NCBI GenBank assembly: GCA_965262755.1
Contig: OZ253557.1
Span: 718,619 to 782,618 of the forward strand
DNA length: 64,000 bases
Direction of reading: 5' to 3'
Source of the DNA: Alphaproteobacteria bacterium
Lineage (GTDB): Bacteria > Pseudomonadota > Alphaproteobacteria > UBA828
Below are positions 531 to 58,033 of this stretch, in pieces. How positions within the stretch are numbered: the stretch's first letter is position 1; the number at the start of each line of letters is the position of its first letter. The translations under genes and the position numbers were made by a program. The notes below the pieces were generated by a model. The model was not told the DNA's origin. It saw nothing but the letters and a program-made list of their open reading frames with translations, and ran no database searches.

Positions 531-622
531 TGTTGTTCGGCGCACTGGTTGGACGCCGATCGGCATCGCAACACATTGATTCAACTCGTTTCCGAGGGGT
601 CAGACACTCACGCCGAACAACA
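531..622. mobile_element. 92-bp IS21-like-ended MITE, copy 1
   Basis: Perfect 12-bp terminal IR TGTTGTTCGGCG/CGCCGAACAACA; internal GGACGCCGATCGGC and GGGGTCA motifs; IHF consensus CAACACATTGATT; aligns without gaps to copies 2-4. Confidence 0.85.
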
Positions 623-706
623 CAACAGGACCAGACCACCGTCGGACGAAATCAGGCTACCCCCGCAATCGGCGGTTAAAGGCTCTGCGCTTAACGACAC
701 TTGGTT

Positions 707-848
707 CTACAATGAGGTCCGTCTGCACAGTTCGATCGGCCAGAAAGCCCCGATTGAACTTGCCAGCCCTTCTGGGCTGGCATGCCGGCCCTGAGGCAAA
801 CGAATCGTGATTTTCTCGGATCCGGTGATCCAACATCGGCGCAAGTCC
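707..848 (+). pseudogene. IS3-family transposase 3' remnant with right end
   Basis: YNEVRLHSSIGQKAP (integrase-core C-terminal motif) followed by GGTGATCCAA...CA end-like sequence. Confidence 0.6.
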
Positions 849-1150
849 ACCACAACTCCCGGTAAGGCGCGATCCGAACCTATTAGTGGAGGCAGGTCAC
901 CTCGTCGTCGAGAAAAAGCTAACGGCCATTGCATTTAGTCTCCAGCCCTCCCGTGTAAGCGTAATAGGCAGACTGGCTATAACGCTTCTCCCACAACGAT
1001 TCCGCTTCTGCTTCGCTATCTCCAAAAGCAACCGAAGGCGGACCGTCGTCTTCGTCGTAGTAGGTAATGCACCTATGATTTATGGGAATTATATCGGAGA
1101 GTCACATTCGGGCGGGGGATGCGGCCTCGCCGGCAGAAGCGCTTGACGGT

Positions 1151-1585
1151 CTAGGAGGACTCCGACCTGAAGAATAGCGGCTCAAGCGCCTTCTGACTCA
1201 CCTGCCAAAGCTCGTGCGGCTCGTCGCCAATGAAGAGATCGCATTTGCACTCGCTTTCGTTCCAGCGGGGCGTCACAGAGAAGCCATCATCGCGATTGCG
1301 GCCGCGAGTGCGGCTAACTCGTAACTCAAGGGGCAGCATTTCAAATCGCACTGTCGCGACTGGGCTTCCGTTCATCTGACGGGCTACCGAGAACATCGGA
1401 ACAGCACCCCCATACTCCTTCTGCACGGAGTATTTGAAACGACCTTCTGTCAGCGTATCAATCCCGTTGGCCTGCTTGGCATCACGCTGCACCAGGCCAA
1501 AAAGAGCCTCGAACGTCAAGTCGAGATTGCAGTCGGCGCGAGCCTTTACCCAGTTCGGCGGCTCGCTGAAGACGTTCGACGACAT
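1151..1585 (-). CDS. hypothetical protein
   Basis: Protein-like ORF (MSSNVFSEPP...), downstream of and co-oriented with 1618-1836; start could be 1621. Confidence 0.6.
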   Translation of the reverse strand: MSSNVFSEPPNWVKARADCNLDLTFEALFGLVQRDAKQANGIDTLTEGRFKYSVQKEYGGAVPMFSVARQMNGSPVATVRFEMLPLELRVSRTRGRNRDDGFSVTPRWNESECKCDLFIGDEPHELWQVSQKALEPLFFRSESS

Positions 1586-1617
1586 CACGGACTCGTTACG
1601 CCAAGACGCCCATACCG

Positions 1618-1836
1618 TCAAGCGTCGTCTGATTCCTTCACGACCACCGACCGCATGACCGCATCCCGCAGCCCCTCAGGCGTCGCCTTCACGCTCACGT
1701 CCGCCTCCAGCTCCGCCTTGCTCGGCTGGTAGTTCGACGGCTTCACCTTGACGTGGCGCAGGAAGGGCGGTGTGCCGAGCGATGCAGATGCTTTGCCCTT
1801 GTCGGCTGGGCGGCTTCGGCCTCGCTTCTTGTCCAT
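1618..1836 (-). CDS. small hypothetical protein
   Basis: MDKKRGRSRP...KPSNYQPSKAELEADVSV; GAGGGAG RBS upstream. Confidence 0.6.
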   Translation of the reverse strand: MDKKRGRSRPADKGKASASLGTPPFLRHVKVKPSNYQPSKAELEADVSVKATPEGLRDAVMRSVVVKESDDA

Positions 1837-1934
1837 GTTTACTCCCTCACACGCCTGCCCATGATGCCATGCGGGGCTGGCGTTGTCTCGTCGCTTCGCC
1901 CACACTCGTTCTGCGGCATACGGGGAGACTGGCC

Positions 1935-2243: not shown

Positions 2244-2381
2244 AGTGGCTACTTGCCAGGGATTAGGGGCCTTTCTCGGCCGGCCAAGGCCAGGAAAGTC
2301 TACTCGCTGCGCTGTTGGCGCTCTAGTTTCCCGATCTTTGCGCTGTAATCCGCATCCATGTCCTCAACGTGGCGGTTTAGG

Positions 2382-2473
2382 TGTTGTTAAGCCCGCAGAT
2401 TGGACGCCGATCGGCGTGGTAACACGTTGATTCGCTTTGATTCCGGGGGGTCAAACGGCGATGCCGAACAACA
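2382..2473. mobile_element. 92-bp IS21-like-ended MITE, copy 2
   Basis: TGTTGTTAAGCCCGC...ATGCCGAACAACA, exactly 92 bp, same internal motifs, IHF consensus TAACACGTTGATT. Confidence 0.85.
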
Positions 2474-2751
2474 CGCTGATGATGAACCGGCCGGAGCCCG
2501 CGTCGCCGGCGGCTTAGCCTCCCGCCGGCGCGCCACGCCCGGCATCCCTCGAAGCCTTCCGATCTCCATGGGACCGGGGCGTCCCACCGGCGCCCGGCCG
2601 TCCGCGTCCCGCCGCAATCCGTTTGCTGCGCCGCGCGGGCGCGCCTGAACGCCGGCGAGAGCGAGAGGCTGGCCGGGAGCAGGGCGGCGGTGCGCGTCCA
2701 GGGAGAGGGCGCCGCCGCCGTTTCCACTCACCAGCCAGCGGGAGGCGGCAT

Positions 2752-3072
2752 ATGCAGATCAACGGCACACTCCAGGGAAACGCCCGGACTTATCTCACCC
2801 ACGTATTCGGGCGGGGGTTGGACGACGAGCGATACCTCGTCGAGAGGTTCCTCTCGGCGGCCGACGGAGACATCCGCCCCTACGGCGCCACCGAGCGCGC
2901 TAAGCGCGGACGGAAGCAGCCGCGCAAGGTGATGAGCCTGCGCTCCGTTCAGCGCCTGCGGCCCGGGCGCGACGAGATCATCGTCTGCACCGGCGTCACC
3001 CTGAAGGACTCCGGCATGCAGATGTGGGGAAGTCTCGCGACCATGCTCTTCGTGGACAGCAGGCGCCGGTGA
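2752..3072 (+). CDS. hypothetical protein (leading region)
   Basis: GGGAGG RBS, MQINGTLQGN..., high-GC codon usage. Confidence 0.65.
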   Translation: MQINGTLQGNARTYLTHVFGRGLDDERYLVERFLSAADGDIRPYGATERAKRGRKQPRKVMSLRSVQRLRPGRDEIIVCTGVTLKDSGMQMWGSLATMLFVDSRRR

Positions 3073-3146
3073 GCGCTGTTCGGCGGGGCGTCCGACCCGG
3101 GCGCCCCGCCACTCCTTCGCCTCTACTCCGACAGGGAGGATGCCGG

Positions 3147-3956
3147 ATGCCTTTCAGGAACCCCGACGAGAACCGCGCCTGGGGGCGGCGGCGCTACCGG
3201 CGGGTCACCGCCGGGCGCGTTGCCCTCGGACTCTGCCCCAGATGCGACCACCGCCCGCCCGAGCCCGGCCGCCGGCTGTGCGCCGATTGCGGCGAGCAGC
3301 GTCGCAGGGTGGACCGCGACCGCTACGCGCGCGCCAGGGCCGAGGGCAGGCTTTACGGCGGAAAGGCCGCCGAGGCCAAGCGGCGGGCGGGGCGCGCCAA
3401 CACGAAGCGCCGCTACGACGCCCGCCACGCTGCCGGGCTCTGCACCAGGTGCGGCAGGCACGAACCGGTTCAGGGCGGCATCGCTTGCGAGGGTTGCCGC
3501 GACCGGCGGCGCGTCCGCGAGCGCGACATCTGGTCGGAGCGGCGGGCCGAGAGCCTCTGCGGCGCCTGCGGTGCGCCGGCACTCGACGGGGGAGCGAGAT
3601 GCGACCCCTGCACCGCATTGCAGACCGGGCGCCCGTCGAGGAAGGAATACGGCCGCAAGATCTACGCCCGGCGGCGCGCGCGCAACCGTTGCACCGATTG
3701 CGGGGCCCGGTCGGGCGACGCGGCGCGGTGTCCGGGGTGCGCCCGGCGCTCCCATGCCCGCTCATCGGAGCACAGGGGGCTGCCCGCGTGGCCAGCGCGC
3801 TACACCGTCATCGCGATCGCCACGGGCGAGGACCTGGGCACGTTCGAGAGCGCCGCCGAGGTGGCCGGCTGTCTCGCCTTCTCGAAGCTCGCGGCGGACG
3901 ACGTGGAGATCGTGTCGGACACCTCCGAGATGGCGCGATACGCGGCATGGACCTAG
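3147..3956 (+). CDS. Arg/Cys-rich protein with four tandem CxxC-x(~10-11)-CxxC putative Zn fingers
   Basis: CPRC/CADC, CTRC/CEGC, CGAC/CDPC, CTDC/CPGC; GGGAGG RBS. Confidence 0.75.
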   Translation: MPFRNPDENRAWGRRRYRRVTAGRVALGLCPRCDHRPPEPGRRLCADCGEQRRRVDRDRYARARAEGRLYGGKAAEAKRRAGRANTKRRYDARHAAGLCTRCGRHEPVQGGIACEGCRDRRRVRERDIWSERRAESLCGACGAPALDGGARCDPCTALQTGRPSRKEYGRKIYARRRARNRCTDCGARSGDAARCPGCARRSHARSSEHRGLPAWPARYTVIAIATGEDLGTFESAAEVAGCLAFSKLAADDVEIVSDTSEMARYAAWT

Positions 3957-4320
3957 AGCGTGCGCGCCTCGCCCGCCGGGGCCGCGCGACGGCCGGGCCC
4001 CCACCTTCGATTGCCGCGCGAGCATCGCGCCCCACCCCGCTTCCACGCGCGGCGCTTCGCGCCCCGCCGGTGCGATCCCTCGCCATCCGTCGCTTCGATC
4101 CGGACGCCGCGCTCCTGACGTCCGACGCCGGCGTGCCGCACACCGCGACCGAATTGACCGCGCGAACGGTCGTGAGGTCTGCGGCTATCCGGCAGACGGC
4201 GAGGCGGACGGCAGGCCAGAGTTGGAGGAGGGCCTGGAGAAGGGTGAGCGGGGAAGGGGTCGAGAGAGCCCGGACCCGCTCGGCAACCATCGTCAGAACC
4301 AGGAACCATAGGAGACGATC

Positions 4321-4782
4321 ATGAGCTTCGGATTGAATCGCGCGGAAGTGATCGGCCGCCTCGGCGCCGATGTGACCGTGAATCATCTCGCATCGGGGGG
4401 CCGCGTGGCCAACCTGAGCATCGCCACCGACGAGAGCTACATCGACAGGAACGCCGGCGGCGAGCGGATCGACAAGACCGAGTGGCATCGGGTCGTCACC
4501 TTCCAGGATGGGCTGATCGACATGCTGGGCAAGCACGCGAAGAAGGGCCGTCTGGTCTACGTCGCGGGCAAGATGCAAACCAGGAAGTGGCGCAAGGACG
4601 GCGAGGACAGCGACCGCTACTCGACCGAGATCCTGCTCGTCCCCGGTGGGCGCGTTCAGTTCCTGGATCGCCCCGCCGGCGCCAACGGCAACGGCGCCCC
4701 GGCGTCGAACGGCGAGGCGGCCCAGCCCGCCGCGAGCGGCGACGCCGATCCCGACCACGACACGAGCCACATTCCTTTCTGA
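4321..4782 (+). CDS. ssb: single-stranded DNA-binding protein
   Basis: LNRAEVIGRLGAD, TEWHRVV, KGRLVYVAGKMQTRKW, C-terminal IPF. Confidence 0.97.
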   Translation: MSFGLNRAEVIGRLGADVTVNHLASGGRVANLSIATDESYIDRNAGGERIDKTEWHRVVTFQDGLIDMLGKHAKKGRLVYVAGKMQTRKWRKDGEDSDRYSTEILLVPGGRVQFLDRPAGANGNGAPASNGEAAQPAASGDADPDHDTSHIPF

Positions 4783-4806
4783 CGGGTCCCTCCCGCCCGT
4801 CGACCT

Positions 4807-4850
4807 GGGCCGATCCCACCCATCCCCTGGGCTTCGGGATCGGCCCTTTT
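4807..4850 (+). terminator. putative intrinsic terminator after ssb
   Basis: GGGCCGATCCC...GGGATCGGCCC followed by TTTT. Confidence 0.6.
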
Positions 4851-4925
4851 CTCTGTCAACGAACGGGACGCGGCAGGCCGCTTCGACGACCGTCGCCGCG
4901 TCCCATGCCTGGGGAGGTATCGATC

Positions 4926-5225
4926 ATGTCCAGCTGCGGCTTCAGCATCCACGACATCCGGTTCCGCAGGACCAGCGACGACGAATGCGCGATCGTCGTC
5001 CACGGCCAGACCGTCGGCACCGTCATGCGACGGCCAGACATCGCGAACCCCGATGGCGGCTTCTTCTACGCCGTCCACCTGATGGACGATTTTCGTGGGC
5101 CTCGGCTGGTCGATCATCGTCACGAGGTCCGACCGGTCGCCGCCGCGATGATCGCCGAGCGCGATCTCGCGCCCTGGACCCCGCCACCGGTCCATCCGGA
5201 CTTCGCCCGGCACCGGCCCGCGTGA
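4926..5225 (+). CDS. hypothetical protein
   Basis: GGGGAGG RBS; MSSCGFSIHDIRFRR... Confidence 0.65.
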   Translation: MSSCGFSIHDIRFRRTSDDECAIVVHGQTVGTVMRRPDIANPDGGFFYAVHLMDDFRGPRLVDHRHEVRPVAAAMIAERDLAPWTPPPVHPDFARHRPA

Positions 5226-5927
5226 TCTTCAACCTCCCGCCCGCCTCGGGGACGTGTCCTCCGTCAACCTTCGACGGCGGCCGTCCCCATTTTTGTGCAG
5301 CCAGGCCGGAGCCCCCTCACGCCGCCATCTCTCCCGCCACACCGCTGGCGACGACAACAGAAAAAAGAGAGCCCGCGTGTGTGGGGAGGGGGGGGCATCT
5401 CGTCGTGATCTTCCATTGTGCCACGCGTGCTCATTCCAGCAACCCTCCGGGTCCTCCGCTGCGCTCCGGCCTGGCCCAAGCAGGACTAGGGCGGGCCGTG
5501 AAAGTCGCCGACCGTGAAGTTGGGCTTGCGAGAACTCCCCAAGACCTCGCGTGTGGCGCGCCGGCCCCTGAAGCGCGGGGCCGGCGCGTCGGCCCGGCGC
5601 TCCCAAGCGGCCCGGCGCACGGCAGCCAGCACCCAGAGCCCTGCCAGGATGCACCATCGTGAATCGCTCCCGGCGCCTCGTACCGGGGCGGCTGCTGCCT
5701 GCCGCACGCCTCGAATGCCTACTTGAAACGCGGCTCAACACCACGACCCCGCGCCGGACCTCCCCAGACCGAGAGACGCCCAACTTCCGCACCAAGATCG
5801 CCGACTTTCCGCACCAACCCCCGCCCAAGACCTGCTAGGGCCAGGTGCTTCCACTGCGCGCGCGTGACCCAAAGGAACATCACGACGGGGCAGACCGCCT
5901 CGGAGGATGAACCGAAAGGAGATCGTC

Positions 5928-6845
5928 ATGCGCGACATCATCGAGACCGCAACCGCTTCTTCCACCGCAGCCGTCTGTGAGAGCCTCGCCCTTTACGGCG
6001 GAAGCCCCGAGCGCGGCGAGCTCGACAGCCGCGACGTCTGGGACCAGGACGACGCCACCGAGGCGCTCGGCGAGGCCATCCGCGTCATCGTGGGCGGCGT
6101 CACCGTCGAGGGGACGCAGCTCGCCGACGAGCGCGAGAGCCTGCTGTGGGGCTTCGTCAATATGCTGCACAGCCAGGTCGCCCGCCTCGACCGGACCGTC
6201 GACCGTATCGTCCCGGAGATGCGCGACCTCGAGCGCGCCCAGGACGGCACCGAGGTGAAGGCCGTCGAGCTTGAGACCCTGACCGATCGGGCGCGCAACC
6301 TCGGCGATCGCCGCGACGCGTTCGAGAAGATGCGCGACACCGCCGCCGAAGCGTACCGGGTCCACACCGGCGATATCTGGCGCCCGCGCCACGGATCGCA
6401 CGCCTCGCGGACCGGATCGCTCACCTCGGCCGCCATCGACGCCCGCGACTTCCGGCGCGCCCGCAAGGACCGCGAGACCCGCGCGCACCTGCCCGAGGGC
6501 ACCCTGGTTGCGGTGACCGGCGGCAAGCAGGTCGCCGATGCGGACGGCGTCTGGAGCACGCTCGACCGCACACGGGAGAAGTACGGCGACATGGTTCTGC
6601 TGCACGGCGGCGGCCCCGGCTACGAGAAGATCGCCGCGAGTTGGGCGGACGCGCGCGGAGTCGATCAGGTGATCTGCCGCCCGGACTGGAACGCCCACGG
6701 CAAGGCCGCGCCATTCCGGCGGAACGACGAGCTGTTGAACCTGCTCCCGAAGGGCGTGATCGCGTTCCCCGGATCGGGCATCACCGGGAACCTCGTCGAC
6801 AAAGCCCGCCAGCTCGGCATCCCGGTATTCAGCGTCGCCGCGTGA
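5928..6845 (+). CDS. DUF2493 / YspA-like SLOG-domain protein of alphaproteobacterial mobile elements
   Basis: LLWGFVNMLH, GTLVAVTGG, LLHGG, DWNAHGKAAPFRRND, FPGSGITGNLVDKARQLGIPV; AAGGAG RBS. Confidence 0.9.
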   Translation: MRDIIETATASSTAAVCESLALYGGSPERGELDSRDVWDQDDATEALGEAIRVIVGGVTVEGTQLADERESLLWGFVNMLHSQVARLDRTVDRIVPEMRDLERAQDGTEVKAVELETLTDRARNLGDRRDAFEKMRDTAAEAYRVHTGDIWRPRHGSHASRTGSLTSAAIDARDFRRARKDRETRAHLPEGTLVAVTGGKQVADADGVWSTLDRTREKYGDMVLLHGGGPGYEKIAASWADARGVDQVICRPDWNAHGKAAPFRRNDELLNLLPKGVIAFPGSGITGNLVDKARQLGIPVFSVAA

Positions 6846-6869
6846 CTGAGGCGCTCCCGCAACCCATCA

Positions 6870-6912
6870 GGGCCGGTCCTTCGCTTCCGCGAGGGATCGG
6901 CCCCTTTTTTTT
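6870..6912 (+). terminator. putative intrinsic terminator
   Basis: GGGCCGGTCCTTCGC...GCGAGGGATCGGCCC followed by T8; related to the 4807 hairpin. Confidence 0.7.
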
Positions 6913-7209
6913 CGCCGTGCCCGGTGTCGCGCATCGCGGCGGCGGCGCTCCGCGCCGCCGCCGCTCGTGCTCCCTGCACCGCCCCCCTGCAACGCGCCGC
7001 CCGCGCGGCCTCGCGTCCGGATCTACGCTTTCGCCGTCGCCGGATGCTTGCCGTCTCAATCCCCCCCCCCCGATCCGTATCCGACACCGCCAACAGCCCA
7101 TTGTTTCGCGCCTGGTTTCCCGTGTGGCCCGTTCGCAATTGTGGCCGACGACGACCCGATATCGCCCTCTGTCCGACCGGCATGATCGGGGCGCCGGGCT
7201 CTATTCCGC

Positions 7210-7600
7210 CGGGCGCGGCTTCGCCCCGCCCGGCTCCACGAAGCCCGCTGACGCGGTCTTCGCCCTTCGGGTGACGATCCCTGTCGCCTTCGCTCGCTCA
7301 CGCTCGCTGCGCGCTACGCTTGCAGGTGCAGGCTTCGAGACCGCGCCCGGCTCGCGAGCGTGGCTCGGTCGCTTCGCTCCCTTCACCCGCCCGCTCTCTG
7401 ACCCTCCGAGCCGCGCTTCGCGACGCGGCGCTTCGCACCGCCGCCACTCGTTCCCCTGTTCTGCCTTCCCGTCAAAGGCCTCCGCCTCGTATCCGGCTCG
7501 GCGCTCCGCGCCATCGCGCCCGCGTCCGCTCCGTTGCCGTCCTCTCCTCATCTGCCCGCCTGTCTCGCTTCGAGCCTGGCGCTTCGCGCCGACGCTCTCC
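7210..7600. other. non-coding hairpin-rich tract (ssi/sso-like)
   Basis: Many short GC stems with CTTCG/CTCCG/CTACG loops, pyrimidine skew, no credible ORF, next to the mob region. Confidence 0.45.
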
Positions 7601-7646
7601 GCTCGTCCAGGCTCCTCTCCAACCCTTTCAACAGTGCTCTGCCCTC

Positions 7647-7952
7647 CTAGAAAGGATCCCCTCCCGATTCCGTCCCCGCCGCCTGCGCAGCCACCTTGGC
7701 AGCTTTCCGTCCCGGCAGCGCTCCCTTGTCTAGGAACGCCTTCAAACTTCGCTCGCCGATCTCGATACCCCGCGATTTCAGCACCTCGTGCATCTGCACC
7801 ACGGTCACGCCCTTGGCCCGTTGCTCGAGCATCCGCTCTCGCAGACGGTCCAGCACGTCCTTCAGGCTCAGCTTTGGCGGTGCCAACTTCGCCAGATCGC
7901 CGTCGATCGCCTCGAAGTCGATATCCGCTTCATTGAATCGCCTTGCCACCAT
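7647..7952 (-). CDS. mobilisation accessory (MobC-like) small DNA-binding protein
   Basis: Divergent from the relaxase; helical HTH-like segment (GVTVVQMHEVLKSRGIEIGERSLKAFL). Confidence 0.65.
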   Translation of the reverse strand: MVARRFNEADIDFEAIDGDLAKLAPPKLSLKDVLDRLRERMLEQRAKGVTVVQMHEVLKSRGIEIGERSLKAFLDKGALPGRKAAKVAAQAAGTESGGDPF

Positions 7953-8094
7953 AGCGTCTCCCTTCCCGCTCGACCGCTACATCTAGTAGTCTCGCATGAT
8001 CGCTCTGCGGCCCCACTGTGTCAACGCCGCGCTCGTATCGGCCTCGATGCGCGCCAACCCGGCGCCGCCGCGTCTTGTCCCTGCCATGGATTCT

Positions 8095-8210
8095 CTGATA
8101 TGCATTGAATCCCCTTGTCGCTAACCGTGTAAGTGATAAAAAGCCTTTGCACACCTGTGCAAGCTGGCGCTTGTGGGATCAAATACAGGGACGTACAATC
8201 TGCCACAGAG
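8095..8210. promoter_or_regulatory. candidate oriT / divergent promoter region
   Basis: AT-richer intergenic segment between the accessory gene and relaxase; perfect hairpin TTGCACA-CC-TGTGCAA at 8147-8162. No nic site identified. Confidence 0.45.
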
Positions 8211-8357
8211 AGACGACATCGCAAACCGGATGCAGATCACGCCCCGAGTTCTCAAGGTGCTAATCACTGATCTCATGAGGCGGATAGTGCCGAACCTCCA
8301 GAGCCGATGCCGGAAGCCGATAACCGCTCTCTCGCGTAGCGTTGAGGCGCCCTCGCC

Positions 8358-11300
8358 GTGGTAGCCTCCATCGGCCAGATGGCGTCTGCCGAGTACTACC
8401 TGGAGAGCCAGCGCACCTTCCGGCATCCCAACGAGTACTACACGGCGGGCGAGGAGCCGGACGGCACCTGGTTCAACCCCAAGGGGCTCTTCGGCCTGGA
8501 GGACGGCGTCAAGGTCGACGCCGGCCACTTCCAGCGCCTTTACAACGGCTTCGCTCCCGACGGGTCGGGCAAGCTGGTACAGAGGGCCGGCAACCCGGAC
8601 CGGTCTCCGGGCGTCGACATGACGTTCTCCGTGGACAAGAGCGTGTCGGCTCTGTGGGCTCTCGCCGAGCCGGAGACGCGCGAGCGGATCGAGGCGATGG
8701 CCGTCGCCGCCGCGCGGGCGGCGCTGGAAGACTCGGTCCTCAAGTATTGCAGCTACACCCGTGTGGCAGAGAAGGGCGTCACCCGTCCGGTGGAAGCGGA
8801 TCTGATGGGCGCCACCTTCGTTCACGGCACCAGCCGGGAGAACGATCCCCAGCTTCATGTCCACTGCGCGATCTTCAACTTCGCCAGGACGCGCGAAGAC
8901 GGCAAGTGGCGGGCGCACCACCAGTACCCGGTCTACAGCTGGAAGAAGGCGGCCGGCGCGCTGTTTCGGGCCTACATGGCCTGGGAGCTGCAACAGGGGC
9001 TCGGCGTGCGGATCGAGCAGTACGGCCCGAACGCGGAGTTCACCCGCATCGCCGGCATGCCGGACGATCTGAAGGCCTTCTGGTCGAAGCGGCGCAAGGC
9101 CATCGTGGCGATGGCCGGCGAGCTCGGCATCCCGGCGCTCGGCAACGCCTCCCGCATGGCGGGCGTGAACAAGCTCACGCGGGAGGGGAAGTCCCACGAC
9201 AACGACCCCGAGGTGCGACACCGGCGCTGGCGGGAAGAGTCTTCGTCCTTCGTCGAGCGCGAGAGCCTGATCGCCTCGGTGACCGGGCATGACGTGAAGA
9301 TCCCGCGCGAGGCGATCCGGGAGCTCACCGATCGTCTGGACGATCTCCCCGCCCATTTGGCCCGCGAGGAAGCTGTGTTCCGGCGCCCGGACATGGTGGA
9401 GGCGGCGGCGAACGCGGCGGCGGGTCTGATGGGCCGCGACGCGGTGGGGACGACGATCGAGCGGCTGCGCCGCAACCCCGAGATCGAGCGGCTGGAGCCG
9501 AAGAAGCCAACGGCCGAATCCCGCGCCGGCATGGTTCACACGGAAGTCTATTCCACCCGCCACAATCTCGGACTGGAACAGGCGGTCCGCGACATGGCCG
9601 AGGCCATGAACGCCGATAGCAGCCACGGGCTGCCGGCCCAGGCGATCGACGACAAGGTCCATGACCTTCTGGAGAAGGGCTATCCGCTGAGCCAGGAGCA
9701 GTCGCTGGCGATCCGATACGCCACCGCGCGGGGCGGGCGGGTGGCGGTGATCGAGGGCGCGGCGGGCTCGGGCAAGACCACCACATTGCGGCCCATCACG
9801 GACCTCCACAGGGAGCACGGCTACGAGATCGTGCCGACGGCGGTGGCGTGGCGGACGGCGGTGGCGCTGGGCGACGACTGCAATGCGCGTCCTTACTGCG
9901 TCGACAAGCTCCTCAAGCTTGCCGCGAAGGGCCAGGTCGAGATCGGCAGGCGCACCCTGATCGTGGTGGACGAGGCGGGAATGCTGTCGACCCGCCAGGC
10001 GCACCACATCCTTCAGCTCTCCGAACGCCACGGGGCGAAGGTGGTGTTCGCGGGAGACACAAGGCAACAGCAGCCGGTGGAGGCGGGGCCGGGGCTGCGG
10101 CTGATCCGGGACGTCGCCGGCAGCGTCCGCGTCGACCGCATCAGGCGCCAGAAAGCCGACCTCGAAGACATCCTGGTTCATGTGCACGGGGAGACGCCCG
10201 AGCAGGCGCGGTTCCGGGCGGGGCTGACCAACCCGCAGGAGCGGGATTCCATCCTCGCGGACTACGAGGCGATGGACCGCAAACCGGTCTTCACGCCGTG
10301 GCAGGTCTCGGTCTCGGAGGCGCTCAGGGACGGGGAGGCGGAGCAGGCGATCGAGGCGTGGCGGCTCAGGGGCCGACTTCATCTCTGCCATGACGAGGAG
10401 AAGACGCTGACCCGTCTGGTGGACGACTGGGAGCGCCATGTTCGCGTGGAACCGGACGCCGCGACGGTGGTGCTCGCGCGCACCCGCGCGGAGGCACGCG
10501 CACTCTCGTGGCTGATGCGGCAGCGGGTGCTCGCGCAGACGCCCGAGGCCAAGCGCGCCGTCATCGAGGTGAGCCGGGACCTGGACGGGCGCCTGACGGA
10601 GCCGCTCGAGATCGCCGTCGGCGACCGTCTCAGGATCGGCGCCACGCAGTGGGACAAGCAGCTCTTCAACGGCACGGTGGTCACCGTCGAGGGCATCGAG
10701 ATGCACCCGGAGGTCCGGCGCGACGACGACACCTCGGTGTCGCGCAAGGCCCGGAACAGGCAGGCCGCTGGGCGCAAGGACGGCAAAGCGAGCGAGCCCA
10801 AGAGTTCGGGCGACGAGTCCCCGGTCCACATCACCGCGCGCACCGACGACGGGCGCAGGGTGGCGTTCCGCCACGACGAGATCCGCGACTACAAGGACAA
10901 CATCCGCATCGACTACGGCTATGCGATGACCATCGCCTCCGCGCAGGGGCTCACCGTCGACCGGGCCTTCCTGCTGGTCGACGACAGGCCGGCGCGGGAG
11001 ACTATCTATCCCGCCGCGACACGGCATCGCGAGGGCATCGATATCTATGTCAACCGGGCGCCGATCGTCGTCGACATCGCGGACAGGCGACCGGAAGACC
11101 GGGCGGATATGCCAGTCACGGACAGCGATGTGCGTGCGTATCTGGCCGAGCGCTGGTCGCGCTCCCAGCCCAAGGAGGCGGCGCTCGACTACGTCTCGGA
11201 CGGTGCGTGGCGCGATCCGAGGGAAGAGCCGCCGCATCATGACCGCAAGGCCGGCGAGACGCGGGAAGAGGCGGCCGAGCTGCGCGAAGCAGCCAACGAC

Positions 11301-12323: not shown

Positions 12324-12329
12324 CGGCCC

Positions 12330-12892
12330 TGCGGACAACGGAGCGTCTTCGTACCCTGGCGCCGCTACAACGGCTGGGAGGGCACCGGGTGCCGCGCGCT
12401 GACCGAGGCGGAGATCCGCGCCATGCGCCCGCTCGCCGCGCCCCACCATCCGGCGTGGGAGCGCTGCCCGGCCAGGGTGCGGGACCTGCACGCCCGCAAC
12501 GTCGCCGTGGTTCTCGGGATCGACATGCGCCAGCCGGTGCATGCGATGCTGTGCTGGAGTAATGTTGCCGGCAACATAACTGGTCGAGGAAGGGGGAGGA
12601 CGCCGGCGGCACCGGGATGGCGATCCGCCTCGCGCGGCATCACCGGATCCCGGTGCTCAACCGCGCCGCGCTCGACGCACGCGAGGCGTTGCGCCGGCTT
12701 GACGGCATCGCCGCTTCCATCGTTCCGGCGCCCGACCGCCGGCAGGACCGGAGCCTCGACGAGCGATCCGGCGGAGCGGTCCGGCCGCAGCCGGACAAGG
12801 GCGACAGGGATTGGTGGCGAGGGTCCGGCGACCGGCTTCCGCACGGCCAGGAGGTTCGACCTGCGGGCAGACGGCGCTCCATGCGTCCCTAG
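12330..12892 (+). pseudogene. frameshifted DprA-like/SLOG domain remnant
   Basis: Across frames: VPWRRYNG...HHPAWERCPARVRDLHARNVAVVLG...VHAMLCW / GGTGMAIRLARHHRIPVLN. Confidence 0.65.
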
Positions 12893-12977
12893 AAAGTCCG
12901 TCCGGGGCAGTGCCGCGAAGCCGGGTCCCGAACCCGGGCATGCGCGGGACGCGCATCCCGGGCCGTCTCCGGCGGCG

Positions 12978-13700
12978 TCACGGCCGTCTAACGACGAGCG
13001 GGCAGTTCACCCCGGCATTCGTCCGCATCGCTTCCGCCGCGCAGTCGACGATGGTGCGCCCGTAGTTGTCCCAGACATGGCCGCGCCAGCCGCCCGTCGG
13101 GTCGTGCAGGGGGATGACCTGGAATTGCTGCTCGACCAGCAGCCCGAGCAGGAGGGCGGCCGGCGCGGCGATCGCCACCGCGACGGCATACCAGCGCCGC
13201 CGCCGGCGCCGGTCGGTTTCTATCCAGCGGTGCATGTCCGCGGCAGGGACCGGGACGATCTCCCGGGCAGGCGCGGCCTCCGCTGCTAGCGGTTTCTCCA
13301 CGCCGAGGTCGTTCAGAGATTCCAGCAGCGACCGTGTCTTCGCGCTGTCCGCGCCGAGGCCGCCCATCTCTTCGAGCAGCTGCTCGAGGTTCTCGTTCAA
13401 CCGCCGCAAGTCGCCGGGCGCATCGACGCCGGCGTCCGCGGGCGGCGCCGCCGCCGGATCGGCCATCTCCCCGGACGGCGGCAGGTCATGGACGGGCGCG
13501 GTTTCGGCACCGGATCCCCGGTCCACCGCGCCCTCCTGTCCGGCCTCCGGGTCCGCATCCACTGCCGCCTCGGGGGCGGGTTGCACCGCATCGCTCCCGG
13601 CCCCGCCGGATTGTTCGGCGGTGAACAGGGGTCCCGCCGATTGCCCGGCCGGGTCGCCGGCCCTCGTTTCGCTGCCCGGCGGCGTCTTCTTCGCCGTCAT
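12978..13700 (-). CDS. hypothetical membrane-anchored protein downstream of the coupling protein
   Basis: AGGAGG RBS; one TM segment after an Arg run; start overlaps the T4CP stop. Confidence 0.7.
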   Translation of the reverse strand: MTAKKTPPGSETRAGDPAGQSAGPLFTAEQSGGAGSDAVQPAPEAAVDADPEAGQEGAVDRGSGAETAPVHDLPPSGEMADPAAAPPADAGVDAPGDLRRLNENLEQLLEEMGGLGADSAKTRSLLESLNDLGVEKPLAAEAAPAREIVPVPAADMHRWIETDRRRRRRWYAVAVAIAAPAALLLGLLVEQQFQVIPLHDPTGGWRGHVWDNYGRTIVDCAAEAMRTNAGVNCPLVVRRP

Positions 13701-15685: not shown

Positions 15686-15729
15686 GGCCAATTCCTTCCT
15701 TCTGTTCATGGAATGCATTGCGGGCACGG

Positions 15730-16450: not shown

Positions 16451-16504
16451 CCCGGCAACGGAAAGTTTTTTTTGCCCGCCCCGCCATTCCCGCACCCGGG
16501 ACGC

Positions 16505-49630: not shown

Positions 49631-49636
49631 GCTAGG

Positions 49637-51641: not shown

Positions 51642-51803
51642 TCCGTAATGGGGCGTTTGCCGTCAAGCGCGTTTTTTTCATCAGCGATCGCCGCGATCCT
51701 AATTTCGGCTCGCGGACCAAGGTGTTGATCGGCATCGTCGTGTGACCCCTCGGTATCTAAGAGAATCAACACGTTGCCGCGCCGATCACCGTCCAATGTG
51801 CGT

Positions 51804-52041
51804 GCTCTTGAGTAACAGATGCCTAAGCGATTGACAGCATTGGGTTTTGCGTTTCGTCGTTTTGCGGTGCCGGGACGAGTTGGAGCCCGAGTTTTCGGGC
51901 TTAACATCGGGTGCCGCTACAGCACGCCAGTGCGCGAACGGCCTCTTCACCCCACCCGCAGCCACTTCAAGCCCGAGGCGTCGCAGACACAAGCCCCCGT
52001 TACTCCCGCGACCGAGCCGGAGCGACGCGCAGGTGGAAGCT
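51804..52041 (-). mobile_element. mini-IS110 (internally deleted derivative) in tandem with the full element
   Basis: 51804-51902 resembles 52039-52137; 51898-52041 matches 53605-53748 with 4 substitutions; fused at GGCTT. Confidence 0.88.
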
Positions 52042-52057
52042 CTTGAGTAACAGGTGC

Positions 52058-53476
52058 CTAAGCGATTGACAGCATTGGGTTCTGTTTTTCCTCTCCTTGC
52101 ATTTTCGGGACGAGTTGGAGCCCGAGTTTTCGGGCTTGGCGGTCGAGATGAGCGAACTTTCTGTTGAGGCGCCGCTTCTCGTAGGCGTCGATGCCCTGCT
52201 CGACGTATTTCTGGCCTTCGGTCACCATGAGGTAGATCAGGCAGGCGAGTTCGCGGGCGGTCGCCTTGATCGCAACGGGGGTGTCCATTCGGGCGAGCCT
52301 TGCGCGGTGCTTGGCGCCGATGAAGGTCTCGCTGCGGCGCGCGGCCATGGCCGCCATGCGCAGGGCCTGCCCGACGGGGTTGACCGCCTTCGGCGACTTG
52401 CCGGGGAGGTTCTTGCCGCCGCTGATCCTGGTTCCCGGCGCGAGCGCAAGCCAGGAGCAGAAGTGCTGGGCGGAGGGGAAGGCGGAGAAGTCCGGGCCGA
52501 TCTCCGAGGCGATCACCAGTGCGGTACCGGGACCGATGGTGGGGATCGCGGTGAGGTCGACGCCCATCATTCCGCGCAACGCCAGGGCCTGGATGCCCTC
52601 CTTGCCGGTGTAGTTGCTTGCGGCGTTCGCAGAGCGGCTCGACGCGGTTTCGGAGGTCGTGCCGGGGGCAGGGTCCGGCGCGCCGCCGTCCGGGAGATCG
52701 TCCGGCGGTGCCAGGCGCTCGATCTCGGCCATCACCCGGACCTCGCAGTCGTCGATCTGCTGGGTCAGGAAGTCGTAGCGCTGCATGGCCTGTTCGAGGG
52801 CGAAGAGGTGCTCCTCGCGCCACGTCCCCTGAAGGCTCGCGGCGATCGTATCGGCGTCGGCCTTGATGCCCCGGTGGCGGAGCGTCGCCAGGCGCTCTGG
52901 GTCACGCTCGCCGTCGATGATCGCGCGCAGGATGCGCTGGCCGGTCAGTCCCGTGATGTTGGCGATCACCGAGTCGAGCTTGACGTTCATCTCGGTCAGC
53001 GCCTTCTGCATGTGCAGGACGCAGCGGGAGCGGTCCCTGGTCAGCCGCCTCATCTGGCGTGCGTAGGAGCGCAGCGGGCAAACCTCGTCGCCCGGACGGA
53101 ACGCTCCCCGCAGCAGGCCGTAGGACATCAGCTGCCAGATCCACTGGCAGTCCAGCACGTCGCTCTTGCGCCCGCCGATCTGCTTCGTCATGCGCGGCGG
53201 CACCAGCATCACCTCGAAGCCCGCGCGCTCCAGCGTCTCGTAGACCGGGATCCAGTAGACCGAGGTCGACTCCATCGCGACCTTGGTCACCCCGCACGAC
53301 GCCAGCCACGCCGCCATCTCCTCCAGATCGCGGGTAAAGGAGCCGAACGAACGCACCGGCTCATCGCTGCGTTCCGGGTCGACCGCCACGAAATGCCGGT
53401 CCTTGCCGATGTCGATCCCTGCGCAGTCCGGGTTCACCACCCTGAGGCGCCGGGTTCTTCGAGACTTGCGCGCCAT
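52058..53476 (-). CDS. IS110-family DEDD recombinase/transposase
   Basis: GIDIG, MESTS, KSDVLD, IPTIG, LAPGTRISGG, ATARELA. Confidence 0.96.
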   Translation of the reverse strand: MARKSRRTRRLRVVNPDCAGIDIGKDRHFVAVDPERSDEPVRSFGSFTRDLEEMAAWLASCGVTKVAMESTSVYWIPVYETLERAGFEVMLVPPRMTKQIGGRKSDVLDCQWIWQLMSYGLLRGAFRPGDEVCPLRSYARQMRRLTRDRSRCVLHMQKALTEMNVKLDSVIANITGLTGQRILRAIIDGERDPERLATLRHRGIKADADTIAASLQGTWREEHLFALEQAMQRYDFLTQQIDDCEVRVMAEIERLAPPDDLPDGGAPDPAPGTTSETASSRSANAASNYTGKEGIQALALRGMMGVDLTAIPTIGPGTALVIASEIGPDFSAFPSAQHFCSWLALAPGTRISGGKNLPGKSPKAVNPVGQALRMAAMAARRSETFIGAKHRARLARMDTPVAIKATARELACLIYLMVTEGQKYVEQGIDAYEKRRLNRKFAHLDRQARKLGLQLVPKMQGEEKQNPMLSIA

Positions 53477-53489
53477 GGAACATCCTCCC

Positions 53490-53700
53490 AGGTTTCATCT
53501 CCGTCGCGAGTGGGGAGGAACCATGTTCGAAGTCCCATTCTCTTGAACGAGGTCACGGGAAACCCGCGCCATCAGTGACCGAGGCGACAAAATGGTTCGG
53601 ACCAGGCTTAACATCGGGTGCCGCTACAGCACGCCAGTGCTCGAACGGCCTCTTCACCCCACCCGCAGCCAGTTCAAGCCCGAGGCGTCGCAGACACAAG
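53490..53700 (-). ncRNA. putative IS110 bridge RNA
   Basis: Structured non-coding end with target-matching segments at 53628-53634 and 53606-53613 and a donor-matching segment at 53540-53546. Transcript ends are approximate. Confidence 0.7.
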
Positions 53701-53907
53701 CCCCCGTTACTCCCGCGACCGAGCCGGAGCGCCGCGCAGGTGGAGGCTTAACAACACCCTGACTCTACCCAAGGAAGACCAATGAATGTGTCTTGAATAA
53801 GAATCTCAACTCAGGAAGGCGAACGCCATCTATCCACTGAAGTGAATCTCTTCATTGATTGACCCAGATGCTCAAATTTGCAATTTTATGTACGAACACT
53901 TTTCCCT

Positions 53908-54450
53908 CTATTTTGGCCTGCTAATGTCTTCGAAGAACTCCACCGTACAGTTGATCAAATCCGCTCGCTTCTGCACTAAAGATGAGCTGGCTGGCGCTTG
54001 TTGACTACTAGCGTCAGATCCGTCGCACAGATAGCCGCCATTCTTCCTGTCATCGCACACCGCGTGGACATTGAGCTGCATACTCAACGTCCTGTTATCC
54101 TCATCAATACGAAGGCATCCGGGATACATCTGGGCCAACTTGACTGGAAACCTCGGCTTTTGCTCGATCACAGTAGTAATGTCACAAATACGCAATTGCG
54201 CTGCGGCGCCTTCCAGCGTCCAGCAATCCGGTATTAGCGTTTGATCCTTCATCCACTTCAGACTGCCGCGAGCACAACGATCACCAGGATGGACATCCAC
54301 CGATACCAATTTATCTTCGAAATACCAATCTACTACCTTAGTAATTCCTCCTAATCCAACAAAGCCAACGATCCAAACAAGAATCTTAAAGACCAAGTGC
54401 AGCCGTCCATACCATTTGAGAGCACTACGGAAATTATTCCCGGCGTTCAC
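53908..54450 (-). CDS. low-GC membrane-anchored Cys-rich hypothetical protein
   Basis: N-terminal TM segment and several Cys; GGGAG upstream. Confidence 0.65.
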   Translation of the reverse strand: MNAGNNFRSALKWYGRLHLVFKILVWIVGFVGLGGITKVVDWYFEDKLVSVDVHPGDRCARGSLKWMKDQTLIPDCWTLEGAAAQLRICDITTVIEQKPRFPVKLAQMYPGCLRIDEDNRTLSMQLNVHAVCDDRKNGGYLCDGSDASSQQAPASSSLVQKRADLINCTVEFFEDISRPK

Positions 54451-54480
54451 AGCACGGCGCTCCCTAATACACGTTCTGCA

Positions 54481-55104
54481 TTAGCGGACAGCCCAGTGCA
54501 GCTGTTCACGCAGGTAGTATACAAGGAAATAGTCGAAATCAAACCTGAGAGTAAGCCAGCCGTTCGGATGCACGCCGCATCCGAACCTACCCTCTCCAAT
54601 AAGCTTTCCATCCCCTGGGTAATCGCTCGCGACGAACTTCCTCATGCATGAGTTCAAAACTTCCTCGCCTCTAGCAAGGGTCTCACTAATTTCACTTGCA
54701 AGCTCTTCTCGAGGAATATCGTTGAATTCCCTCAGCACAGCAGCTCCTTGACCCCACATCGTCCACTGATTAAAGTGCTCACTAAACATTCTTGCGAGCG
54801 CGCCATTGGCTTGGCTCTCTGTGAGATTCTTGAGCATTTCGTCAAACTGCAGCTCGCTCTGCGACGCAGTGGTAGACTCAAGAGATTCGATGTCAAACGT
54901 GCACCAGTCACGCTCTTCATCAGTAATCAGGAAGCACTTGGCGGCGTTTGTCACCTCAGCGCCGTCCTCATTGTCGTTCAATTCTTCGAGATCGCACTTG
55001 CATTTTTCTTTTGTTGCGCCCGCATCGGCTGAAGCCGGAAAAATCAAAAGTCCCAGCAGCACCGCAAGCAGGAAGGGGCACAATGCATGCCTCTTTGTGT
55101 ACAT
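54481..55104 (-). CDS. low-GC exported Cys-rich hypothetical protein
   Basis: GGAGG RBS; signal peptide ...LLIFPASADA. Confidence 0.75.
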   Translation of the reverse strand: MYTKRHALCPFLLAVLLGLLIFPASADAGATKEKCKCDLEELNDNEDGAEVTNAAKCFLITDEERDWCTFDIESLESTTASQSELQFDEMLKNLTESQANGALARMFSEHFNQWTMWGQGAAVLREFNDIPREELASEISETLARGEEVLNSCMRKFVASDYPGDGKLIGEGRFGCGVHPNGWLTLRFDFDYFLVYYLREQLHWAVR

Positions 55105-55464
55105 CTTACTATCCTCCAGTTGTCGAAACTCCCGGTTAACTTTCCACTCAGTTAAGAACAGGGATGCAAGCGCCAACTTGGTATACTAACACATGTCAAA
55201 TGTTCCGATTGAAAGTGTTCGTTCTCTAGCAAAGAAGTTTTTTCAAGAATTAGTCTTGTGCGTACTGGACGTGGCGAATAGAGCGGTTCTAGTGAAGCCG
55301 TGCAATAGCGGTAGGTTCCTCTGCGCTAGCGAGATGAACTCGCGCCACACGATATTTGAAGATAGGCGTATACCATTGTGGTTTTTGGAATATCAGTTTC
55401 CAACGGACTGGTCAAGAAATCGGCTGTTGTGGGTGACGTACGCGATTATGTGTCAGGCGGGAAA

Positions 55465-55592
55465 GGGGTACTCCCTGTGGTTGTCCAAGAGCCACGAGCG
55501 GGAGCACCCCGATGCCACAGCGCACTGCGACGATTGAGAGTCTACCGATGGCCTTCGCCGCCGTGAAGGAAATGCAAGAAGAAGGACTGTAG
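55465..55592 (+). pseudogene. possible IS256-type left end and first codons
   Basis: MPQRTATIESLPMAFAAVKEMQEEGL-stop resembles a transposase N-terminus; recognition is weak. Confidence 0.3.
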
Positions 55593-55943
55593 CGCTGTCT
55601 TGCCCTCGGGGTCCTTCACTTCAAGCCAATCGAGAGCGTGCACCAGCGAGAGGACGGCGTCGAGCGGTGCGGTGCCCGAAGTCACCAAACGAGACGACCA
55701 GCCGTTCGAGGAATTCGAGCGGCATCCAGAACCCGCATGGCTAGAACGAGGCAGGCTGAGCAGGAAACGGCGCGCAGGTGCGGCGCCGGTTGACTGGCCA
55801 GGGGCGGATGTGGGGCTTGGCTTCGCCGGGTCCGGTTGGCCTTCAAGGACGCAAGATTGCACGGCTGGCAACAGGTGCGGAATCGCTAGCGCTTCCTCGT
55901 GCTAATTTCACGAAGGATCCGGAGAGGCAGGCTGGGAAGGCTG

Positions 55944-57371
55944 ATGAAGTCGACCGGGTGCACGCGTATCTGGCTGCGAGCGGCGGTGCTGTGGAGCGCG
56001 TTGTGCGTGGCCGTTGCCCTGCTCGTACCCGGTTCGGCGTTCGCCGGAGCGGTCGAGGTCGACGCACGCGCGGCGCACCGGGCGGTGTGGAAGGTATACG
56101 GGGCGGGCAAATCGGGCACGGCCTTCGCCATTGGAGACCACCACTTCCTCACCTGCGCCCACGTCATCAAGGGTTTCGCCGACCACGGCGCGAAGGAGGT
56201 CTTCATCAACCAGCACGGGAGCACGGACGGCCGAAAGCTTCGGGTCAACTACGGTCATGCGGCGCTGACGCTCGTGCAGGACATCGCCCTGTTCACCACC
56301 AAGGAGACGGCGGACTACTACTTCGCCCTGGCGGAATCCGGCGCGTTGGAAGGCGTGGCCGGGCTTCGCATCATGGGCCACCCTGCCGGCCTCCCGCTGG
56401 AGACGCTGCGCCAGATCGACGCCATCACCTACGAGAATGAATTCCAGCTGGAGGTTCCCGCAGACAAGATCACGCGGGGCGGCCTCAGCGGATCGCCGCT
56501 GTTCGGGGATGACGGCAAAGTGGTGGGAATGCACTGCCAGGGCAGCGCCAACATGATCATTGCCGTGAAGGGCGAACATCTACGCCGGTTCCTCGATGGC
56601 GACCTGGCATGGACCGCCTGCAGGGACTATCCGTCGGTGGCGGTCTGTGTCGAGCGGGCGACGAGACAGACCCGAGAGCTGGCCGATGCGGGCGACCGGG
56701 TGGCGCAGTACCAACTCGGACGCGACGACGGCCACCTCGACAAGGACCCATCCATGTTGCGTCGGGCCGCGGAGGGCGGATTTGCGCCGGCACAGTTCTC
56801 CATGGGCATGCTACTGAAGGACCGTAAGAAATGGACGGAGGCGGCCCGGTGGTTCCGGTTGAGCGCCGCACAGGAAGATCCGGCCAGCCTGTACCAGCTC
56901 GGCTTGGCGTACTACAGAGGACGTGGGGTGGCTCGAGACCGCGCGCGGGCCTTCGAGCTCATGCTCCAGTCGGCCCGGAGCGGATACGCCACTGCCGAGT
57001 ATGGCGTGGGATTGCTGTACGAGATGGGAGGCGGAACCACGCGTGATGTGGCGACGGCGCGACAGTGGCTGAAACGGGCCGCGGACAAGGGGCTTGAGGA
57101 AGCACGGGAGAAACTAAAGTCACTATCGACGTCGCCAACGGACGGTGCCATGGAGCGCGGCACGCTGATGTGGGCGGCCAAGCGGTCGAACGTGCGCGCC
57201 GGGCCGGGGACGAGCTACGCGAAGGTGGGCCTCCTTGAGGTCGGACAGGCGGTTCGCGTAATCGAACGGATCGGAGCCTGGTTCAAGCTGCAACCGAAGC
57301 CCGGTCAGCCGGAGCGTTTCGTCTACGCGCCGCTGCTCAGCGAAACCGCACCCACCGCGGGGATCGAGTGA
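55944..57371 (+). CDS. exported trypsin-like serine protease with Sel1 repeats and C-terminal SH3
   Basis: Signal peptide, TCAHV, DIALF, GGLSGSP; AQYQLG/LYQLGLAYYRGRGVARD repeats; NVRAGPGTSY. Confidence 0.9.
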   Translation: MKSTGCTRIWLRAAVLWSALCVAVALLVPGSAFAGAVEVDARAAHRAVWKVYGAGKSGTAFAIGDHHFLTCAHVIKGFADHGAKEVFINQHGSTDGRKLRVNYGHAALTLVQDIALFTTKETADYYFALAESGALEGVAGLRIMGHPAGLPLETLRQIDAITYENEFQLEVPADKITRGGLSGSPLFGDDGKVVGMHCQGSANMIIAVKGEHLRRFLDGDLAWTACRDYPSVAVCVERATRQTRELADAGDRVAQYQLGRDDGHLDKDPSMLRRAAEGGFAPAQFSMGMLLKDRKKWTEAARWFRLSAAQEDPASLYQLGLAYYRGRGVARDRARAFELMLQSARSGYATAEYGVGLLYEMGGGTTRDVATARQWLKRAADKGLEEAREKLKSLSTSPTDGAMERGTLMWAAKRSNVRAGPGTSYAKVGLLEVGQAVRVIERIGAWFKLQPKPGQPERFVYAPLLSETAPTAGIE

Positions 57372-57820
57372 CAGACGTCTTATTCAACGCCGCATCGGCG
57401 ATGGGGAGGTGGCGTTGGCGCCCGAGCTTGGCAGGGGCGTTTGTCCTTCTCCTCGTGAGTGTGCTCGCCTATGGGCCGCCGCACGCGGCAGCCGAGAGCA
57501 TGGCCGATCTCGCGGTCTGGCAGATCGTCAACAAGAAGCGAACGTACACGGGAACCGCGTTCGCCATTAGAGAACGACACTTCCTGACCAATGCCCATGT
57601 CATCGAGGGTTTCGTCGATCACGACTCGAAACAGATCGTACTCAGGCAGCAGGGAAACGCGCTCGAACTCACCGTAAACTACCGCCGTGTAGCCCTCTCG
57701 CTGACTTATGATCTGGCGCTATTCACCACCCGCGAAGCGGTCGAGCACGTGTTGGAGCTCGCGGGACGAGAGACGCCATCCGCGAGTCGCAGCATCGCAT
57801 CGTCGGCTATCCGGGGTCGC
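57368..57820 (+). pseudogene. truncated trypsin-like paralogue
   Basis: GTAFAI, TNAHV, DLALFTT; frameshift before IVGYPG; catalytic Ser region missing. Confidence 0.75.
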
Positions 57821-57941
57821 GGCTTGGAAGGACTTGCGGACTGTTCCGTGACACTCGCGGTAAGGCCGTTCCGATCGACTCTCGCAGTACGGGCGAATGC
57901 AACGCGGGCGGGCCCGGGGAGCGGGGGTGGCAGGTCCGGGC

Positions 57942-58033
57942 TGTTGACCGGCGTCCAATGTTGACCCCTCATAGTCGCGTGATATCAACATGTTAGTGTG
58001 CCGATCGGCGTCGAATCGGCGCGCCGATCAACA
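57942..58033. mobile_element. 92-bp IS21-like-ended MITE, copy 4 (inverted relative to copies 1-2)
   Basis: TGTTGACCGGCG...CGCCGATCAACA, 92 bp; IHF consensus TATCAACATGTTA. Confidence 0.85.

Follow-up and report, generated by a model that had tools for sequence, protein, structure and literature searches.

A dispersed family of 92-bp units, very likely IS21-type miniature elements, whose tips abut truncated DNA in a repeat-rich alphaproteobacterial genome

The Correia elements of Neisseria are short, non-coding, dispersed MITEs (miniature inverted-repeat transposable elements) that have terminal inverted repeats of approximately 26 to 27 bp and a central match to the consensus of integration host factor (IHF); they have a TA target duplication and are variable in length. 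REP, BIME-1, and RIP units, together with the REPINs moved by RAYT, are units of approximately 100 bp with two inverted arms, part of them with an IHF site, and have no target duplication. Two reports describe insertion sequences (ISs) of the IS110 family that land on REP-type units (PMC11208160 and PMC12288879). For the IS21 family, one report states that the ends are made up of repeats termed L1/L2 and R1/R2, to which a tetramer of IstA binds, that IstA acts on single and tandem elements, that the IstA of IS5376 requires two full repeats per end for integration in vitro, and that the duplications of IS5376 are 5 bp in length (PMC10122671). Here, we describe a 92-bp unit with IS21-type ends that was recognized in a 64,000-nucleotide stretch (the window; positions 718619-782618 of contig OZ253557.1, assembly GCA_965262755.1) of an alphaproteobacterial genome of 6.17 Mb, which is assembled as one contig.

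The window holds four copies of the unit (copies 1 to 4; Table 1), which align without gaps over the unit with a mean column identity of 77% and all of which contain YAANNNNTTGATW; copy 3 is interrupted and measures 92 nt after removal of 51804-53745. An earlier note on this DNA had described them as a family of four 92-bp copies of fixed geometry, bordered by TGTTG and CAACA. The coordinates, the ungapped alignment, and the near-constant length agree with that description, whereas the family turned out to be far larger. A profile built from the four copies gave 156 matches in the whole genome at E values up to 10 and 108 at E < 1e-5, i.e., 107 non-overlapping matches, 58 on the plus strand and 49 on the minus strand. 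The window copies themselves matched at E = 5e-22 to 3e-26, far beyond chance. Both profile ends are spanned by 68 of the 107 matches, one of which was excluded because it is 111 columns long; the remaining 67 were examined together with 50 full copies from relatives (117 in total). The length is exactly 92 bp in 107 of these 117 copies, namely, in 57 of the 67 own copies (91 bp in nine and 93 bp in one) and in all 50 from relatives (30/30 and 20/20). When the 67 copies were aligned with 30-nt flanks, conservation began and ended exactly at TGTTG and CAACA, and the flanks were unrelated to one another, so that the ends named in the note are indeed sharp borders.

With copy 2 as the BLAST query, the unit was found in 18 of 20 same-genus genomes and, among 20 relatives at a greater distance, in one. 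In a sample drawn from the class, 4 of 400 other genomes carry it, and these four belong to two other families; the related records are uncultured alphaproteobacterial metagenome-assembled genomes. A search of a plasmid collection with the 92-bp unit gave no match. The copies share a mean pairwise identity of 71%, and for 37 of the 67 own copies the closest other copy is at least 93% identical.

The unit is composed of two arms of approximately 27 bp, which are imperfect inverted repeats with TG...CA tips, and an asymmetric center of 38 bp. The outer 12 bp are inverted repeats, and a second symmetric motif at positions 19-27 (TTnGACGCC) is mirrored by positions 68-76 (GGGGTCAA); the arm pattern is TGTTG-N-GCG ... 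TTGAC(C/G)CC. TGTTG is present in 155 of 170 tips, and 168 of 170 start with TG. There are three arm types (TTCGGCG, GATCGGCG, and TTAAGCG); approximately 18 of the 67 copies combine two arm types that are unpaired at positions 8 and 9, and these mixed-arm forms recur as subfamilies at several places. The center contains GATCGGC and a conserved TAA-N4-TTGA. G29, A30, T31, C35, and A41 are invariant, and A42, T47, T48, and G49 are kept in 93-99% of the copies, while positions 43-46 vary freely. Each arm has one clear IstA-type repeat; beside the left arm, GATCGGC...TTGA looks similar to a further such repeat, although with a spacing that is 3 nt longer. From its letters, TAA-N4-TTGA reads as either a putative IHF core or a decayed second IstA repeat.

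Several other identities of the unit were considered and rejected. A hairpin or structured RNA is not indicated, since RNAalifold found no terminal helix on either strand for the 67 copies, the arm pairing is broken at positions 8 and 9 in the mixed-arm copies, and there is no conserved hairpin covariation; in Rfam, copies 1 and 2 had no match even at E values up to 10, and the window at gathering score had none except a group II intron. In an integron attC site, the boxes stand in the opposite order to that found here, where a GTT-type box comes first and an AAC-type box comes last, and the attC reading was rejected from the sequence. The similarity of the GGGGTCA... motif to Tn3-family ends is accounted for by the TTGACCCC part of the IS21 repeat. 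A REP/RAYT system was rejected because PF01797 (Y1) had no match in the genome in a search whose control was positive in 6 of 14 genomes.

The arms lead to an autonomous element. A search with an arms-only profile showed arm-like sequences outside the 92-bp copies, at both ends of a 2550-bp IS21 element, which is present in five genome copies: three are intact, and the left end of the other two is cut by an IS110-type element. It codes for a 520-aa IstA (rve, Mu-transpos_C_2) and a 242-aa IstB (IstB_IS21, 2.7e-75). The left end is TGTTGTTAAGCGTGGAACATTGACCCCC followed by a second repeat, and the right end consists of two adjacent repeats terminating in TGACA; thus, each end carries two direct repeats of the same pattern as the 92-bp arms. 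At 80 loci in public genomes, the left ends of related ISs are TGTTGTTCGGCG, TGTTGATCGGCG, or TGTTGTTAAGCG, and the arms of the 92-bp unit show the same three variants as these sublineages. The ends had been called IS21-type before this element was found, and the partner transposase had been taken to lie probably elsewhere because the ends of the IS21 in the window (34974-37773, with IstA and IstB frames) differ from the 92-bp arms; the 2550-bp element, which lies outside the window and has matching ends, bears out both statements. Judged by these shared repeats, the 92-bp unit is very likely an IS21-type MITE.

The flanks of the unit are as distinctive as its ends. Paralogues elsewhere in the genome were found for 81 of 134 flanks of 200 bp, compared with 194 of 600 random segments; the latter figure, about one third, marks the genome as unusually repeat- and IS-rich. 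Unique sequence over 600 bp to either side is found at only 2 of the 67 copies. In no case do the two flanks of a copy adjoin each other in one paralogue, and when a gap of up to 20 kb was allowed, only two loose cases appeared, with gaps of 745 and 1039 bp, and this arrangement was rejected. Among the 42 flanks for which a paralogue reaches the junction, conservation continues past the junction in most, i.e., the flanks are truncated at the tips, in agreement with the earlier description of copies at junctions of unrelated DNA. Junctions were found 250-860 bp inside repeats having 7-31 copies with 99-100% identity, which means that the tips abut the interior of IS copies that are young. A co-moved flank, as in one-ended transposition, was rejected because a search of the 60 kb beyond the copy did not reveal the missing half of the truncated repeat; nearby matches were obtained for 10 of 52 queries and were mostly the paralogue itself.

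The window copies illustrate these junctions. To the left of copy 1, the frame of an IS630-type (DDE_3) transposase is cut at residue 177 by the tip, a truncation that the note had already reported, and the sequence on its right reads as the final part of a transposase of integrase type. The right side of copy 2 (2474-21847) is the start of a paralogue of a large island that occupies 3.645-3.740 Mb; the copies of this island elsewhere extend further leftward than that in the window, which ends at copy 2. Copy 4 is bordered by the end of a frame for a trypsin-like peptidase on one side and by an IS66-type fragment on the other. When contigs of public sequencing runs were aligned with 53760-58500, the summed depth at copy 4 was approximately 1900-2700, compared with approximately 10-260 alongside, in three of four runs (X2 being the exception), and in the contigs of the four runs many distinct sequences diverge exactly at 57942 and 58033. 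In two paralogous flanks, opposite-sense 92-bp copies stand 14 bp apart. At one orthologous site, a copy abuts the end of a conserved gene in three species, a fourth has a decayed copy at a distance of 44 bp from that point, and a fifth genome has other DNA; a clean empty site was not obtained among the sites compared in relatives.

A DDE transposase is expected to leave a duplication of the target from its staggered cuts. None of the 67 own copies, which include the four of the window for which the absence had been noted before, has a target duplication of 1-8 nt at the exact borders, with the borders shifted by up to 4 nt, or over 7-200 nt, and gapped flank alignments revealed no decayed duplication in any of them. 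Among the 50 copies from relatives, 11 of which come from one genome in which the partner IS is present at least 36 times, no duplication of 4 bp or more was found, and there was a single 3-bp match. On the other hand, autonomous relatives of the partner have a duplication of 6-9 bp in 9 of 39 cases, 2 bp in 2, and none in 28, and one of the three intact own copies of the 2550-bp IS has an 8-bp duplication. Comparison of all tip pairs, in direct or inverted sense, gave no shared duplication above shifted controls, and a composite transposon, a cointegrate, and an inversion, which would leave duplications shared by two copies, were rejected for this reason. The only long tip-pair matches are two trivially adjacent pairs, a 70-bp overlap, and one 9-mer pair. 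The overlap represents two truncation points in paralogous DNA, where two copies cut paralogues of one island. The inverted 9-mer is shared by the left tip at 683023 and the right tip at 684159 of a neighboring pair, which is what an inversion by joined ends would give.

We consider it probable on balance that the family is a MITE of this IS21 subgroup that is served in trans by IstA and IstB and that gives rise to adjacent deletions at its tips. Each arm would represent one terminal repeat of approximately 27 bp recognized by IstA, and IstA and IstB from the 2550-bp element would bind and cut the tips. New 92-bp copies would have arisen in the past as exact units, and the present junctions would be the products of end-mediated intramolecular events, mainly adjacent deletions, in which the tip of the unit is the active party and one product is lost. 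Both the action of IstA on the unit and the origin of the junctions by deletion are inferences. As a further step, which we put forward tentatively and regard as doubtful, the normal outcome might be the joining of a tip to new DNA without duplication, by adjacent deletion or fusion, so that the copies would act as fixed points at which accessory DNA is trimmed and re-joined and island borders are set; the 92-bp length and the IHF-like center would then provide the geometry that lets ends 38 bp apart meet in one transposase complex. If true, this would be a mode of MITE action that has not been described for IS21-type elements.

A number of observations weigh against the proposed role of IstA and the deletions. 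The lack of duplications in all 117 copies is at odds with both the expectation for a DDE transposase and the 9 of 39 autonomous relatives that have one. The deletion route is reached by exclusion, since models that preserve both junctions predict shared tip-pair duplications, which are absent. Cutting followed by end joining is the less likely route, as no Ku gene was found in the search. Each arm has one clear repeat and at most a decayed second, compared with the two that the IstA of IS5376 requires. An intact close IstA was found in 5 of 21 genus genomes (the present genome, G000, counted), whereas the 92-bp element is present in 19 of them, so that many element-bearing genomes have no intact close IstA; IstA fragments are present in five further genus genomes and in G035, a genome of another family. 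Finally, no two copies are identical, and the best pair shares 98.9%, which indicates that the copying was not very recent, though the junctions with young IS copies appear to be.

The first alternative, an improbable one in our estimate, is that the unit is an old, inert MITE whose duplications and original flanks were erased by unrelated events (IS insertion, IS-mediated deletion, or homologous exchange) and whose tips are passive today. The divergence of the copies, the extreme repetitiveness of the genome, and the many element-bearing genomes without an intact partner IstA would all fit such a relic. However, unrelated deletions would not spare the tips and end exactly at them, whereas 67 copies keep both tips, which abut the interiors of young ISs; deletions by a neighboring IS are unlikely because they would put the terminus of that IS, not an internal point, at the junction; and the loss of duplications in 117 of 117 copies exceeds what decay would explain when autonomous relatives retain them in 9 of 39 cases.

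The center of the unit bears on a second alternative. The IHF consensus as stated in the earlier note (WATCAANNNNTTR) occurs exactly and at a fixed position in 21 of the 67 own copies and 28 of the 50 from relatives, and the core YAA-N4-TTG occurs in 55 of 67 and 47 of 50, respectively. The pattern of conserved and variable center positions mirrors that of the IHF consensus, and the conservation of an IHF-like central motif, which the note had claimed for four copies, extends to the family, in which it is the best-kept part of the center; bending of the unit by IHF may be supposed from this likeness. The genome has 19 matches to IHF-alpha-like genes, two of them over the NCBIfam cut-off and about nine above 100 bits (examples are 368241-368516, 711443-721, and 3644367-645); several are on repeated islands close to copies, and one is at 38 bp from a 92-bp copy. 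The unit might accordingly be a functional site of IS21-end ancestry that is kept by the host or the islands, either as an architectural IHF site similar to REP-IHF-REP or as an IstA decoy that shields DNA, for which target immunity as in Mu is the model. We hold this to be unlikely, although the 92-bp length is strictly kept across three families of bacteria, the IHF-like core has the most conserved positions of the center around four variable spacer positions, full copies account for 21 of only 82 WATCAANNNNTTR matches on both strands of the genome, and IHF-alpha-like genes lie on islands near copies: the copies are mostly in IS-rich repeats where they abut gene fragments, with no regular position relative to genes, and their subfamilies have spread as complete units to places that are unrelated, as a mobile element would.

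The dedicated recombination site that the earlier note had also entertained, i.e., a crossover site at which a site-specific recombinase exchanges modules like cassettes, is very improbable: it would suit the always unrelated flanks of the two sides, the 2-kb peptidase module that has copies at both borders at 3117-3119 kb and at a single end in the window, and the non-complementary arm types combined in some subfamilies, but the arms are IS21 transposase-binding repeats with TG...CA tips, the orientation is mixed, the window copies are not regularly accompanied by a recombinase gene, the mixed-arm subfamilies were dispersed as whole units and not formed anew at each place, and an exchange inside the unit would leave the genes beside the tips untruncated.

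The coordinates of the copies and of the element that splits copy 3 are listed in Table 1. The split of copy 3, which the note had listed, is an insertion of an IS110-family element and not a rearrangement made by the 92-bp element. The IS110-family unit is 1710 bp in length, including shared core letters, and its transposase frame is located at 52058-53476 on the minus strand. It is preceded by a miniature derivative of approximately 238 bp, in which approximately 99 bp are similar to one end of the element (88% identity) and 144 bp to the opposite end (97% identity). Matches in the genome number 57 for one end of the element and 61 for the other end; the latter include 23 tandem joints, and tandem arrays of up to five units were observed (e.g., genome 2231551-2240368). 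In 28 of the 38 non-tandem cases, the outside flank is TAACAACA followed by unique DNA, and the opposite side of the insertions consists of the inner parts of TTAAG-type arms, both from 92-bp copies and from the left end of the IS21 element. As read from these junctions, the IS110-family element targets specifically one fixed point of the TTAAG-type arm, and its insertion in arms explains many of the partial profile matches that break at approximately position 11 or 80. The non-coding end of 272 bp (53477-53748) may encode a guide RNA. Other arm-like sequences stop after TTGACC and continue with TAG or TAC (1350162, 264548, 3074335, 5156008, and 4431949), and these breaks may mark another element that inserts in arms.

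Table 1. Copies of the 92-bp unit in the window and the IS110-family sequences that split copy 3
Feature	Position in window	Strand	Basis
Copy 1, 92-bp unit	531..622	+	profile match and alignment
Copy 2, 92-bp unit	2382..2473	+	profile match and alignment
Copy 3, larger part, 81 nt (right arm, center, inner left arm)	51723..51803	-	profile match
IS110-family miniature, head to tail with the full unit	51804..52038	-	sequence families
Full IS110-family unit, inserted in the left arm of copy 3	52039..53745	-	DEDD_Tnp_IS110 9e-22, Transposase_20 1e-12
Copy 3, remaining 11 nt, end of left arm (GCTTAACAACA on the + strand)	53746..53756	-	
Copy 4, 92-bp unit	57942..58033	-	profile match and alignment

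Some further observations concern the surroundings of the window copies. Positions 2474-21847 share 93-97% identity with the island at 3.645-3.740 Mb and partly also with 674-678 kb, and to the left of the point that corresponds to the copy-2 cut, the paralogues of this island lead into an IHF-alpha-like gene. The trypsin-like/Sel1/SH3 peptidase module at 55849-57809 is 95% identical to genome positions 3117518-3119482, where 92-bp copies stand at both borders; in contigs of run X2, the end of a 92-bp copy also abuts window position 55849. At 60243-63049, there is a repeat of approximately 2.8 kb, of which the genome has about 26 copies, composed of part of an IS6-type transposase (DDE_Tnp_IS240, 60305-60973) and a group II intron with a reverse transcriptase frame at 61084-62568 and an Rfam D1-D4 match at 62667-62887. 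The intron occurs alone in a paralogous island at the point equal to window positions 18004/18005, a site that is empty in the window. A run of a 7-nt unit (CTCGGCG) at 26250-26322 is located by the start of a repetitive frame of 2811 aa (18003-26438, minus strand).

The absence of duplications in all 117 copies, which is not expected of a DDE transposase, would point either to an overlooked outcome of IS21 transposition on short substrates or to deletions driven by the tips. If the latter holds, the units would both mark and drive the erosion of genomes in this uncultured alphaproteobacterial lineage with its load of ISs. Provided that IstA acts on them, they also form a natural set of more than 100 fixed-length substrate variants, and they offer an IS110-type recombinase a natural target in many copies. 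In annotation work, gene fragments that end at TGTTG or CAACA tips should be treated as truncations.

A literature search of titles and abstracts found no description of an IS21-derived MITE family, and the unit is best placed by its likenesses to the systems introduced above. With IS21 and IS5376, it shares the TG...CA tips and ends made of IstA-binding repeats; it differs from IS21-family elements in that it has no genes, carries one clear repeat per arm and not two, and is free of duplications in all copies examined, compared with 9 of 39 elements with one. Like the Correia elements, it is short, non-coding, and dispersed in many copies, with inverted repeats of approximately 27 bp and a central IHF-like match, but it has no duplication and a fixed length of 92 bp. 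It resembles REP, BIME-1, and RIP units in its size, its two inverted arms, the central IHF-like site that part of them also have, the lack of a target duplication, and its use as a landing site by an IS110-family element, whereas the arms are IS21-type repeats and not the hairpins of REPs and REPINs. The IS110-family element in copy 3, in turn, is similar to IS621, ISPpu9, and ISPpu10, which insert into repeated palindromes, in having DEDD_Tnp_IS110 and Transposase_20 domains and inserting at a fixed point of repeats, but it differs from them in targeting the tip of inverted repeats of IS21 type, in MITE copies as well as in the IS21 element, and in its tandem arrays, which reach five units.

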